Shown: positions 1 to 6,625 of the stretch, in pieces | Layout: the number at the start of each line of letters is the position of its first letter | Numbering within the stretch: the stretch's first letter is position 1 | Assembly (NCBI GenBank): GCA_963805085.1 | Contig: CAWDTA010000002.1 | Span: 1,472,001-1,536,000 of the forward strand | Direction of reading: 5' to 3' | Source of the DNA: an uncultured Veillonellaceae bacterium | GTDB taxonomy: Bacteria > Bacillota > Negativicutes > JARBTT01 | Length of the DNA: 64,000 bases | Program-made: the position numbers and the translations under genes | Notes under the pieces: generated by a model | Database searches by the model: none | What the model was told of the DNA's origin: nothing | What the model saw: only the letters and a program-made list of their open reading frames with translations

Positions 1-147
1 GTTAAATTGCTTAATTGTTTTTACCAGTGCTGTTAAATCTTCTACCGTGTGTGTAATTTCAAATGGTCGCTGAATAATTTCACCATAAGGCTTTAAAATA
101 CAAACGGTACTTTTACCTTTTGAAACGTCAATTCCTACACTGATCAA
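1..147 (-). CDS. IS110-family DEDD transposase/bridge recombinase, N-terminus (runs off the window)
   Basis: Minus strand reads TTG-start MISVGIDVSKGKSTVCILKPYGEIIQRPFEITHT (GIDVSK DEDD motif); AGGAGG RBS at 157-162. Confidence 0.9.
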   Translation of the reverse strand, partial: MISVGIDVSKGKSTVCILKPYGEIIQRPFEITHTVEDLTALVKTIKQFN

Positions 148-204
148 GGGGATATACCTCCTAATATAATCTTTGTAAAATGGTATCCAATCCTACTTAT
201 TATT

Positions 205-400
205 CTTCATTTTAGTTCGTTACACGAAAGCCAGAAAATGGTTTCAACCTGCTTAATCGAAGATTTATAATAAGAGGATGGCAGACTGTTTTCGTCACGG
301 ATACGAAATCCAAAGGAACGTACGTCTGACCATATACTCCACTTATTATAATAAAAATAAGTGCGAACAACTAAAAATTTTCATTTAGTGTTCACACTTT
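205..400 (-). ncRNA. IS110 bridge RNA in the left non-coding end (5' stem-loop, target-binding loop, donor-binding loop)
   Basis: Three stem-loops in the order known for IS621. Loop segment 312-321 (aaaggaacgt) is identical to flanking DNA 410-419; loop segment 289-298 matches the repeat's GTGACGGAAA at 9/10. Confidence 0.8.
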
Positions 401-409
401 TATAGTACT

Positions 410-440
410 AAAGGAACGTCCCCGCCTGCCACTTGCCCTC
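410..440 (+). repeat. 3' end of a dispersed repeat copy interrupted by IS110
   Basis: aaaggaacgtcccc is the 3' motif of the repeat (compare 6593-6606) and abuts the IS end tatagtact. Confidence 0.75.
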
Positions 441-545
441 AAAGAAACGCTTGTTTACTTTATGAATAAAATAGAATATAATAAGCATATACTAAATAAA
501 CCAAAAACGCACTGCGTAAACAGGACGTTTCGGTTGAATACGAGG

Positions 546-635
546 TTAGGTTAGCACTTTTATGGTAAAAGCAATTAATGCTACTACCTTAACAAGTACC
601 ATTGGTTCGATCTGAAAATCAAAATGGAACTTCAT
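546..635 (-). CDS. 29-aa hydrophobic peptide, candidate type I toxin
   Basis: AGGAGGTG RBS; MKFHFDFQIEPMVLVKVVALIAFTIKVLT; opposing TTTACT-17-TATAAT promoter at 454-482; hairpin 661-688. Confidence 0.5.
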   Translation of the reverse strand: MKFHFDFQIEPMVLVKVVALIAFTIKVLT

Positions 636-814
636 AAGGTCACCTCCTTGTATTCAGTTTTAAGGACGTAGTTAGCGCTACGTCCTTAGTTATTATAACT
701 TAATATTACCAATTTTGATAACTTGAATTTCGGGCTGTTTTTTTTATGTCTCTTCTGATTTCATCTCTATGAATTGCTGATAAAACATTAATAAAGGCGA
801 ACACAAATACTGGT

Positions 815-970
815 AAATAGAATATAATCACTAAAAAGGAAACTCCTGCTGAATTCTGTATAAATTTGGCAGGAGTTTTGAGGTTTCATGAGAATATGTA
901 ATTTTAATACCAAAAAGCGATGGTAAGGTGACGGAAGAGGAACGTCCCTGAGTGTCCTCTGAGTGTCCGT
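815..970 (+). repeat. Dispersed repeat copy A (short form)
   Basis: aaatagaatataa...aactcctgctgaattctgtataaatttggcaggagtt...gagaatatgt...ggtgacggaagaggaacgtccc plus a tandem ctgagtgtcc tail. Confidence 0.95.
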
Positions 971-980
971 AAGATATACA

Positions 981-2348
981 TTAGAGTGATGGTTTCTCCG
1001 ATTTTACGGCACTTTTAACACCATAAGGATCAAAAATCCTAAATGGATCATAATTAGGCATTGCAAATTTAAGTGGATTCGTTTTACTATAATATAGCCA
1101 ATCTTCTTTGGTATTAATTGCTGCATAGTCTATAGATTCGTTCTGTGGTTGAGTGCTGATGGGGACAATATCACATTCATAAAACGTTGCATCCGTTCGT
1201 TTTAAAGTCAAATGTAAAATTGGCCGTTTCATATCCATTTTTATCATATCTTCAAATTCATATAAGTGCAGAGTGTTTGTTTGGATACCATTAATTGAAA
1301 TAATTTGATCACCTGGTTTTACAGCAATAAGTGTTGGTATTTGTTCTGTACTTACCTTCTGAACTGTAAATGGGCCTTTGCTCCAACTTTCATTTGCATC
1401 CAAATATTTTTTTCGAAGATTGAGTCCATAATCATTGAGTCCATAAAAACCTTCGTAGGTTTGATCAATGAGTTTTTTTGTATCTAATAAATATTTATCA
1501 AATTTATCTGGTTTTTTGTCATTAGATAATGTAAACGATAATGGTATATAGTCGGTGCCACTAGAAACGTACATACCAGTCCATGAATCTTTACGAGTAT
1601 GCTCATAGATTAGCCAAGCACGATAATTCAGCCAAGTACCTTCTGATGTTTCAATAAAATCACAGAAATTAAGCACGTCGCTGTCATCACCTCTAAAGCC
1701 AATAGACTTGTTTACATCATCTCTGGCATAACGATTATATCCGTAATAGCCACTCATTACTTTTTTTATGTCATAGTGATAGTTTAAATTATAGCAAAAA
1801 GCATCTTTTATCTGAGAGTATGTTTTGTTTGGAAAAAACAGTTGATAAGTCGGTATATCATAAGCAATGGCTGGATATGTATGCGCTTTTTCTACTGGAA
1901 TTTTCCCGATTTTAACAAATTCCTCTGGTATGATCCTACAGCGTGATTTTATATTTTTCTTGTCAGATATTTTTAATTCATATTCCAATTTCTGTTTTGA
2001 ATTTAGTCCCTGCCAATCAGATTCATTATAAACATACCATTTATCAATAGAGTTACTTGTCGTAGCGTTTTTTCTTAGAGCAGGATCTTTTATTTCTGTC
2101 AGTGGAATTTTCGTTGTTTTATCAACAATAATATTTGCTTCTAAGATATCTGGCACATTTTTATTAATGTGAAGTACTGTATAGTCTTTTTCTTTCGTGA
2201 AAACATGTTGAATTTCTAAGTAGTCGTCTTGAGTAAAATATACTGTTGTACCATTTGTTTGGTCTACCTTGTAAATTGTTGCTTGACAACTACCGATATT
2301 TACTAAGAAAAAAAACAAAATTATCAATAACTTGTGCATCCATGTCAT
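981..2348 (-). CDS. Secreted hypothetical protein with C-terminal PDZ-like domain
   Basis: Signal peptide; VKPGDQIISING PDZ motif; GAGGA RBS. Confidence 0.75.
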   Translation of the reverse strand: MTWMHKLLIILFFFLVNIGSCQATIYKVDQTNGTTVYFTQDDYLEIQHVFTKEKDYTVLHINKNVPDILEANIIVDKTTKIPLTEIKDPALRKNATTSNSIDKWYVYNESDWQGLNSKQKLEYELKISDKKNIKSRCRIIPEEFVKIGKIPVEKAHTYPAIAYDIPTYQLFFPNKTYSQIKDAFCYNLNYHYDIKKVMSGYYGYNRYARDDVNKSIGFRGDDSDVLNFCDFIETSEGTWLNYRAWLIYEHTRKDSWTGMYVSSGTDYIPLSFTLSNDKKPDKFDKYLLDTKKLIDQTYEGFYGLNDYGLNLRKKYLDANESWSKGPFTVQKVSTEQIPTLIAVKPGDQIISINGIQTNTLHLYEFEDMIKMDMKRPILHLTLKRTDATFYECDIVPISTQPQNESIDYAAINTKEDWLYYSKTNPLKFAMPNYDPFRIFDPYGVKSAVKSEKPSL

Positions 2349-2890: not shown

Positions 2891-3037
2891 AAATAGAATA
2901 TAAACACTAAAAAGGAAACTCCTGCTGAATTCTGTATGAATTTGGCAGGAGTTTTGAGGTTTCATGAGAATATGTAGGTTTAGTATCAAAATGTCGATGG
3001 CAGGGTGACTGAAAATGAACGTCCATCGTTTGTCCGT
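2891..3037 (+). repeat. Dispersed repeat copy C (short form)
   Basis: Near-identical core to copy A. Confidence 0.95.
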
Positions 3038-3584: not shown

Positions 3585-3750
3585 AATAGAATATAAACAG
3601 TAAAGAGAAAGCTCCTGCTGAATTCTGTATGAATTTGGCAGGAGTTTTGAGCGTTTATGAGAATATGTAAATTTAATATCAAAAAGTTGATGGCAAGGTG
3701 ACGGAAAAGAAACGTCCCTGAGTGTCTCCTGAGTGTCTCTGATTGCCTCC
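3585..3750 (+). repeat. Dispersed repeat copy D (short form)
   Basis: Core hairpin; ends gaaacgtccctgagtgtctcctgagtgtctct. Confidence 0.95.
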
Positions 3751-3789
3751 AAAAATTAAAGCCCTGGGTGCAGTCAGAGAATAGGTGGG

Positions 3790-4296
3790 TTATTTCTTGA
3801 ATTCGATATTTTGCATGATGTAGGAGAATTCGGCAAGGGTGGTTTCGTACTGAGATTCTTTTGGCGCACTGAATAGAAAATAGCGAAAGTCGGCTCCGTC
3901 AATTGCAAGCATAGAATATATGCGCTTATCATTATTCGGATACATCACGACTGCAGTTAACCAAAAGGCTTGGTGATTATTCACTTGTAGATTTTTGCAA
4001 GTTCTAATTCGAGCGTTGAGGCTTGTGATGTAAGAGTTTTTGGTTTTGAGCAAACAGTCATCTAAACTACCTTCTTTGGGGATAACAGTCAAGTTTATAT
4101 CTGGTGATTTATGATTTTGCATAGTGAATAGGTAAAGAAAGCCCGTAGGAATATCATTTTTATAAGGAATAGCTTCTTGAGTGAACTCAATTTTTATAAA
4201 TTCGTCTTCGTATACCTTTATCTGCTGAGGCTCTGCAGCATACACTGATGTTACGGCAAACATTATTGATACGAGTGATAATAAGATTCGGTGCAT
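3790..4296 (-). CDS. Secreted hypothetical protein (possibly PsbP/DcrB-like fold)
   Basis: Start reassigned to ATG 4296 after AGGAGG; signal peptide MHRILLSLVSIMFAVTSVYA. Confidence 0.7.
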   Translation of the reverse strand: MHRILLSLVSIMFAVTSVYAAEPQQIKVYEDEFIKIEFTQEAIPYKNDIPTGFLYLFTMQNHKSPDINLTVIPKEGSLDDCLLKTKNSYITSLNARIRTCKNLQVNNHQAFWLTAVVMYPNNDKRIYSMLAIDGADFRYFLFSAPKESQYETTLAEFSYIMQNIEFKK

Positions 4297-4455
4297 TAGG
4301 GACCTCCTGTTTATTTCGCAATTTTGATACTGACAATAATCTTTTTCTATTATAAGGTAATTTAAGCGGGATGGGAAGGTATAAGAAGATAATGGCAAAG
4401 GAATAGAAAAAATGTCACTATCTGTAGGAGAATCGATAGTTAAGGGGGAGCATTA

Positions 4456-5019
4456 ATGCCAAGAATCTTTGGGGAAAGAATAATATTGCGAGAATATAAA
4501 AAAGAAGATTTGCTATATATGCGAAAATGGGTTAATGACCCAGAAATAGTAGATAATTTATCTGACGTATTTTTACATGCTAATACAATAAATGAAACGG
4601 AAAACTTTCTGAACAGTATACTTGAGGGGAAAAATAATCAACAAAAAAATTTTGTTATTGCTGATAAACAAACTGAAGAATATATTGGGCAAATTGATTT
4701 AATTAATATTGATTGGAAAAATCGTGTTGCTGAAATGGGTATCGTTATTGGCAATAAAGATTTACTAGGAAAAGGGATTGGAACAGAGGCTATCAAGTTA
4801 TTACAAGCTTTCGTTTTTGAGAGATTAAATATGAATCGGTTAGAATTAAATTTGCATGATTATAATGAAAGAGCTTATAAATGTTATTTGAAATGCGGCT
4901 TTGTGGAAGAAGGACGACTACGGAAAAAATTTTTTATTAATGGTCAATATACCGATGTTATTCTGATGGGAATACTTCGTGATGAGTATAATAGGGGGAG
5001 TAAAATATCAAGTATATGA
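4456..5019 (+). CDS. GNAT N-acetyltransferase (RimJ/RimL/SpeG-like)
   Basis: GKGIGTEA; NERAYKCYLKCGFVEEGRLR. Confidence 0.92.
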   Translation: MPRIFGERIILREYKKEDLLYMRKWVNDPEIVDNLSDVFLHANTINETENFLNSILEGKNNQQKNFVIADKQTEEYIGQIDLINIDWKNRVAEMGIVIGNKDLLGKGIGTEAIKLLQAFVFERLNMNRLELNLHDYNERAYKCYLKCGFVEEGRLRKKFFINGQYTDVILMGILRDEYNRGSKISSI

Positions 5020-6527: not shown

Positions 6528-6625
6528 AGAGTTCTGAGCCTTTATGAGAATATGTAGGTTTAGTATCAAAAAGTTGATGGTAGGGTGACGGAAAAGGAAC
6601 GTCCCCGACTGTCCGACTGTCGTCC
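6528..6625 (+). repeat. Dispersed repeat copy F (5'-truncated)
   Basis: tttatgagaatatgtaggtttagtatcaaaaagttgatggtagggtgacggaaaaggaacgtcccc plus tandem gactgtc. Confidence 0.9.

Follow-up and report, generated by a model that had tools for sequence, protein, structure and literature searches.

Predicted bridge RNAs are already available for thousands of IS110 elements, and it is already published that this family targets REPs. In E. coli, IS621 is described as targeting REPs (PMC11208160, Durrant et al. 2024). For the wild-type element, 4 bp of RTG-RT pairing including the core are reported, extendable to 7 (PMC11208160). Its target is read as 7 + CT + 2, and extension of the right guide raises this to 14 nt (PMC11208160; bioRxiv 10.1101/2025.05.14.653916). 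In Pseudomonas putida, ISPpu9 and ISPpu10 of the same family are reported to insert into a REP or a single conserved multicopy intergenic repeat (PMC12288879; bioRxiv 10.64898/2026.03.19.712850).

Here we analyse an IS110-family element at the left edge of a 64,000-nt stretch of DNA (the window, C2:1472001-1536000) from an uncultured Veillonellaceae bacterium. An initial annotation had proposed that a bridge RNA, its parts ordered as in IS621, is encoded in the non-coding end of the element, with guides aimed at a repeat of the genome itself. Both proposals stand: the fold is kept in 67 orthologues, and the element sits in a copy of the repeat that its guides match. Very probably, judging from sequence, this is an ordinary, now broken IS110-family element whose bridge RNA targets a REP-like hairpin of its host and which an in-frame stop has turned into a relic.

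Insertion site, core and copies

The element lies on the minus strand, with its left end at window position 409, and continues past the window's left edge. Tracked leftwards in host contig C2, its far part extends ~1.17 kb beyond window position 1 to a right end reading ...TTAGCAGG-TT at C2:~1470830. In total the element spans ~1.58 kb, from AGTAC (window 409) to ...TTATTAGCAGG-TT. The coordinates of its features are given in Table 1.

Table 1 Features of the IS110-family element and its target repeat in the window
Feature	Position	Strand	Details
IS110-family element, in-window part	1..409	-	Left end begins AGTAC at 409; ends common to copies A, B and C
Left target ACGTTCCT + core TT (411-410)	410..419	-	Left half of interrupted REP-like repeat; 10/10 identical to guide
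-10 box TACTAT	402..407	-	Predicted sigma-70 promoter with TTGATT of the right end, only across the circle junction
5' stem-loop	361..397	-	6/6 counted pairs with compensatory changes
Target-binding loop module	265..351	-	Outer stem 351-339/276-265; inner stem 330-324/286-281; hairpin 311-299
Left target guide ACGUUCCUUU	312..321	-	8 nt + UU for the core
Right target guide GUGACGAAAA	289..298	-	Effective part ~296-289
Donor-binding loop module	204..263	-	Outer stem 263-258/209-204; inner stem 248-242/229-219, variable tip
Left donor guide AAGCAGGUU	246..254	-	Equals right end AGCAGG+TT
Right donor guide ACUAAAA	210..216	-	Pairs with core TT + AGT of the left end
Recombinase gene start	1..147	-	TTG at 147-145; TAA at codon 227 falls outside the window
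Uninterrupted REP-like site ACGTTCCTTTTCCGTCAC	6585..6602	-	17/18 to guide-predicted target

The right end (...TTAGCAGGTT) is followed by CTGTCACCTTGCC, the rest of the repeat. TT is found at both junctions, and the flanks joined with a single TT read GGGGACGTTCCTTTTCTGTCACCTTGCCAT. This rebuilt empty site aligns without gaps to a paralogue at C2:1456356 (144/154 identity, identical through the REP), and the core is therefore TT, with no other duplication. By this comparison, the window element is a clean insertion into one REP-like hairpin. The initial annotation had predicted that the far end would read CTGGCTT, with the repeat's other half next to it. That half does come next, but the predicted end was wrong because the left donor guide had been mis-assigned to CUGGCUU.

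In an excised circle, the junction would read TTGATT, 16 nt and TACTAT, a candidate promoter recognised from its motifs only. Inspection of the listed loci shows that most have TTGAYW ahead of the right end at a constant spacing.

A BLAST search of the element against the assembly, followed by inspection, identified the window element (copy A), a second full copy (copy B, C1:313547-315145, 92% identical), a fragment (copy C) and one vestige. Copy C is a 223-bp piece of the left end only (C2:2070025-2070247) that retains the whole target loop, and the vestige is ~35 nt of a left end (C2:1939854-1939894). These two are remnants of earlier insertions. Each of them adjoins half of a hairpin repeat.

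The initial annotation expected other copies to sit in the repeat, and it had raised insertion at unrelated sequences as an objection. The other copies are found at related hairpins, so this objection does not apply; the exception to the expectation is copy B's own left junction, which is a poor match. The right junction of copy B is the cognate right target. Copy B lies between two direct 179-bp copies, 98% identical (L002:874-1052 and 2645-2823, on C1), the upstream one of which is preceded by the cognate left-target half. Half-match recombination between sister chromatids, a circle that took flanking DNA along and an earlier tandem duplication were each considered as the origin of this 179-bp repeat, and none fitted the junction letters exactly. 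An array of 9-/18-nt periodicity beside copy B (L002:3364-3999) encodes a PVNPVAPV-type repeat protein.

Public sequencing runs were screened by sampled words; the maximum share was 0.27, and no RNA run was among them. Four runs contained ~1.5-kb contigs from relatives at 88% likeness, which possibly belong to other organisms and give a hint only. These contigs stop 7-12 nt past the right end; on the other side they break off inside the 5' stem-loop, 34-46 nt before the left end is reached. In the same runs the flanking repeat has a much higher summed contig depth, and loose ends cross the uninterrupted repeat. Left of the occupied repeat in element orientation, window 428-555 reaches a summed environmental contig depth of up to ~3000, compared with ~20 for the element; this segment is probably another repeat family.

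Bridge RNA fold and guide covariation

The 5' non-coding end of the element comprises a 5' stem-loop, a target-binding loop and a donor-binding loop, giving a predicted bridge RNA of ~195 nt. Folded on its own, the sequence of copy A reaches -54 kcal/mol (z = -4.69), and none of 200 shuffles was equally good. RNAalifold returned one architecture with seven helices from 10 leaders as well as from 67. In the 67-orthologue alignment, 95.0% of cells are paired, compared with 32-47% with slid partners, and 27 of the 39 pairs have compensatory changes on both sides; 0/500 shuffles reached any of five measures. The stems covary, and the loops do not pair within the RNA. The leader alignment drew on 82 of 88 loci, leaving out those with <240 nt upstream, and also omitted L013, L019, L016 and L017 (duplicates or truncated); the fold alignment used 67 of the 68 distinct leaders, L091 being dropped for its aberrantly short leader. 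An Rfam search of window 1-1200 with E up to 10 gave five weak matches, none of them relevant.

The 5' stem-loop and the target loop are as initially drawn. In the latter, GUCAGAC (330-324) pairs with GUCUGC (286-281), and the GGAU/AUCC hairpin separates the two target guides. The third loop had to be redrawn. It had been given as CAUUUU-(CUGGCUU)-UCGU/ACGA-(ACU)-AAAAUG, and the orthologue alignments give another pairing, in which GUUGAAACC is matched with GGCUUUC..AC and three of four pairs are compensatory. The donor loop has AUUAAGCAGGUU (257-246) as its 5' strand, AUUUUCU is the variable-length tip of its inner hairpin, and CUGGCUU is the 3' strand of that hairpin.

The left target guide of copy A matches its left flank at all ten positions, as first noted. 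Its right target guide, read as reverse complement, agrees at 9/10 with the canonical repeat, again as proposed, and at 8/10 with the actual right flank, where two of the five covarying positions are mismatched. Guide-flank agreement was counted over distinct pairs with the GTACNAT motif and a full flank. The left target guide matches the left flank at a mean of 6.42/10, compared with 4.21 +/- 0.18 when permuted (n=55 distinct loci), and the right target guide matches the 10 nt after ...GCAGG at 7.25/10, compared with 4.77 +/- 0.13 (n=71). For neither guide did any of 2000 permutations reach the observed mean, although these figures overstate independence because related loci are kin. In the fixed register, left-guide scores are >=8 in 23/55 loci and <=5 in 22/55, and several of the low scores, judged by eye, are 1-nt shifts in T runs. 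Right-guide scores are >=8 in 35/71. This subfamily, which is widespread in the Bacillota and has a 400-aa recombinase and a TT core, may tolerate such 1-nt register slips as well as half-matched sites.

The per-position analysis was made without L031, L034, L061, L062 and L097, in which the leader could not be aligned or the right end was not credible. The left guide signal covers eight positions, -10 to -3, before the invariant TT. On the right, an invariant T comes after the TT, then five positions that covary strongly and a further one that does so weakly. The right target guide is thus longer than that of IS621, as had been suggested. Recognition of ~18 bp had also been suggested; the per-position covariation indicates a slightly shorter site of 8 + 2 + 6-7 bp, that is, about 16-17 bp.

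The donor guides can be read in the same way. ACUAA is complementary to the element end TTAGT, in line with the initial annotation, and the variable base of the right donor guide is Watson-Crick with the element's first base in 71/71 distinct loci, using all four combinations (G:C 38, A:U 25, T:A 7, C:G 1). Variants of the left donor guide are rare, and each accompanies a matching right end: AAACAGGUU, CAGCAGAUU and AAGCAAGUU occur with ...AACAGG, ...GCAGA and ...GCAAG, respectively. Across these loci, all four guide segments covary with the DNA that they are predicted to read.

We then propose a mechanistic model along the lines of IS621. The target loop strands 321-312 and 298-289 would read the two halves of the site around the TT core, and the donor loop strands would do so for the right (254-246) and left (216-210) ends of the element itself. 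By analogy with the IS621 mechanism, an excised circle would rebuild the promoter across its junction, the bridge RNA would keep the target next to the circle junction, and strands would be exchanged at TT by the DEDD/Ser recombinase. Copy A would have arisen by clean insertion into the hairpin, followed by the in-frame stop in its recombinase gene.

Target repeat and RAYT-like genes

The target is the T-rich loop plus the 3' arm of a REP-like hairpin, GGGGACG-TTCCTTTT-CCGTCACC. The 18-mer predicted from the guides has 11 sites in the genome with <=2 mismatches, compared with 0 in the reversed genome, and 25 with up to three mismatches, compared with 6. The site at 6585-6602, proposed earlier to be empty, is uninterrupted, and the near-sites reported in other repeat copies are present at window 928, 3005 and 3698. 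The repeat had been taken for a multicopy repeat of the genome that offers many safe landing pads. It is not dispersed genome-wide: we found 13 copies on one strand within 41 kb, together with inverted pairs at three RAYT-like genes. The motif is an imperfect palindrome (GACG..CGTC) with ~20 copies, far fewer than typical REPs, in an assembly that is 83% complete.

The 41-kb cluster (C2:1437184-1478584) consists of 12 uninterrupted copies and the occupied one, all on the minus strand, and each copy stands at one end of a ~135-bp unit that has a terminator-like hairpin and no Y1 gene. Units in the window lie at 927-948, 3004-3025, 3697-3718 and 6584-6605, and the others at C2:1437184-1470063, left of the window. 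The 13 units separate unrelated accessory genes, among them LysR, PadR and AraC regulators, hydrolases, GNATs, a CAT-family acetyltransferase, GH26 and an aldehyde dehydrogenase, and the layout is cassette-like. An integron was considered and rejected: the unit, by reading, is not an attC-like palindrome, and the genes run in both directions. Tandem 9-11-nt repeats (GGACACTCAG, GGACACTAG or GGACAGGTG) abut the GGGGACG end of the motif at window 949-970 and at most other copies, with 1 to >4 units.

The three best 18-mer sites are perfect at all covarying positions, and they are the 3' flanks of three near-identical Y1 (IS200-like) transposase genes. Each gene lies within an inverted pair of motifs, the upstream one on the + strand and the one at the 3' end on the - strand. 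A Y1 gene between inverted repeat copies is described as the defining RAYT layout (Nunvar et al. 2010, PMC2817692). The protein matches PF01797 at 3.1e-14 and scores 27.6 bits on the IS200 model, where 55 is required; on the RAYT model NF047646 it scores 75.6 bits, below the cut-off of 80, and we therefore term it RAYT-like only. Two of the gene copies, 100% identical, lie 2648 bp apart (L103:1139-1888 and 3787-4536), indicating a recent segmental duplication. Nearby, another IS110-family gene (L103:1915-2583; C2:1949415-1950083, minus), truncated to a 222-aa DEDD domain (PF01548, 8.6e-30), stops exactly at the tandem repeat beside the RAYT-like unit.

A second hairpin family (...GACAAGGTGACGGTTCTTTTTGTCT...) has ~20 members and occurs on all five contigs; four members have another Y1 paralogue at a distance of 54-110 nt. 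This second family includes the flank of copy C and a site 190 bp to the left of copy B, and copies B and C carry target-guide variants other than those of copy A. Copy A reads ACGUUCCUUU / GUGACGAAAA, matching the GACGTTCCTTTTTCGTC family; in copies B and C the guide is ACGGUUCUUU or CCGGUUCUGU, matching the GTGACGGTTCTTTTTGTCT family. The 88% orthologue is inserted in GGGGACGTTTCTTT / .. / TTGACAACAAGGTGATAT, which resembles the 5' flank of the host's RAYT-like unit. It is tempting to speculate, though we hold this only tentatively, that one IS110 lineage was retargeted within one genome by a few point changes in the target loop, following two related families of hairpin repeats that go with different RAYT-like tyrosine transposases. 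If so, this would be a transposon living on the recognition hairpins of another transposon.

A related question is whether the repeat belongs to the host at all. It could be the end of an IS200-like or RAYT-like transposase unit, with its solo ends, so that the IS110 element would parasitise the recognition hairpins of another transposon and not use a neutral landing pad of the host. The inverted motif pairs around the three Y1 genes agree with this, as do the multicopy nature of the Y1 gene, whose paralogues number >15 in this genome at 33-42% identity, and a RAYT-model score just below the cut-off. The second hairpin family adjoins other Y1 paralogues too, and the guides of copies B and C are closer to that family. 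However, the 13 clustered motif copies lie inside units that have no Y1 gene, and RAYT/REP and IS200-like ends form a continuum, making the choice one of naming more than of mechanism. We regard transposon ends as a possible but not the favoured description, and keep to that of a REP-like hairpin of the host.

State of the element and relation to known systems

The two ORFs of the copy A recombinase match PF01548 (2.6e-35) and PF02371 (2.8e-19). An intact orthologue, 93% identical (locus L005), scores 205 bits on NF033542, 'IS110 family RNA-guided transposase' (cut-off 140), and matches the structures of IS621 (4.7e-18) and ISCro4 (2.6e-16), with only residues 4-109 and 275-395 aligned. D7, E57, D99, D102 and S321 are invariant in 7/7 aligned orthologues and presumably have the roles of their IS621 counterparts. 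Both a DEDD RuvC-like domain and a catalytic-serine Tnp domain are present, parted in copy A by a stop. Searches of whole genomes yielded intact orthologues that are 93% and 88% identical, along with more distant ones at 48-58%. A pattern scan of genome contigs with a 7-protein alignment added 80 further loci, nearly all from Bacillota; two related loci, in a Selenomonadaceae MAG and in Sporomusa rhizae, come from the same class as the host genome, the Negativicutes. The same kind of contig scan with the 226-aa N-terminal ORF gave 71 stretches that matched the pattern, of which 0 were confirmed.

In copy A, an in-frame TAA at codon 227 splits the recombinase gene into ORFs of 226 and 168 aa, and as the reading frame stands the copy cannot make a full-length recombinase; it would thus be a relic unable to mobilise itself. 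One may object that the element still functions through a split enzyme, stop readthrough or a recombinase supplied in trans, and could still move, or rearrange the DNA between the clustered repeat copies as first suggested. In fact all catalytic residues lie within the two ORFs (DEDD in the 226-aa one, the catalytic serine in the 168-aa one), the RNA stems are intact, and the protein, if the stop is disregarded, shares 379/400 residues with an intact orthologue. Yet both intact orthologues checked have Gln at codon 227, the only other full copy is frameshifted, and a search with this query found no intact copy or other close homologue in the 83%-complete assembly. The junction promoter, moreover, needs a circle. 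Continued function therefore seems improbable to us. It is far less plausible still that the leader is only a cis-regulatory 5' UTR whose flank match arose by chance or is a copied piece of target. Leaders of IS110-family elements are reported to regulate transposase expression (ISPpu9, PMC8450116), but four loop strands that covary with their DNA over dozens of differing loci, in an RNA whose stems covary and whose loops are unpaired within it, already contradict this idea. We thus retain the reading of a broken element with a bridge RNA aimed at a REP-like hairpin.

Our results leave the knowledge of how bridge RNAs work unchanged. What is gained is a correct annotation of the ends, the core, the four guides and the donor loop, together with an alignment of 67 sequences from a Bacillota subfamily that makes every guide position legible. 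The subfamily reads more bases right of the core than IS621, which is of some interest in the search for bridge recombinases of higher specificity. The preference of IS110 elements for REP hairpins, known from Proteobacteria, is extended to Negativicutes, with a target tied to RAYT-like genes.

The scheme known from IS621 recurs here in a new bacterial group, with TT as the core and with guides that are longer. As in IS621 (structures 8WT6 etc.), the 5' stem-loop, target loop and donor loop lie in the left end, upstream of the gene, the arrangement of the IS110 subgroup; in each loop the left guide is identical to the top strand and the right guide complementary, and the core takes part in all four pairings. 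The natural target is a REP in IS621 and REP-like here. IS621 rebuilds a promoter across its circle junction, and the motifs at the ends here would allow the same. In contrast, the core is TT here and CT in IS621, the left target is 8 nt rather than 7, and the right target is 6-7 nt rather than the 2 of wild-type IS621. The recombinase has 400 aa, compared with a 328-residue chain in IS621. The host belongs to the Negativicutes.

ISCro4/IS622 (PDB 9T56) belongs to the same family and has a two-loop bridge RNA, whereas IS622 is described as reading 14 nt, with CT or GT cores and defined handshake guides (bioRxiv 10.1101/2025.05.14.653916). CazIS110-1 of Caloranaerobacter azorensis, also in the Bacillota, is reported to have a ~170-nt bridge RNA whose TBL and DBL pair with the junctions of the element (bioRxiv 10.1101/2025.10.25.684509). 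Compared by description only, it differs from the broken copies here in being active, with ten copies in its genome. ISPpu9 and ISPpu10 share the insertion into repeats but belong to Gammaproteobacteria, and ISPpu10 has been linked to >100-kb amplifications (PMC12288879; bioRxiv 10.64898/2026.03.19.712850), whereas among the copies here the one rearrangement seen is the 179-bp duplication at copy B.
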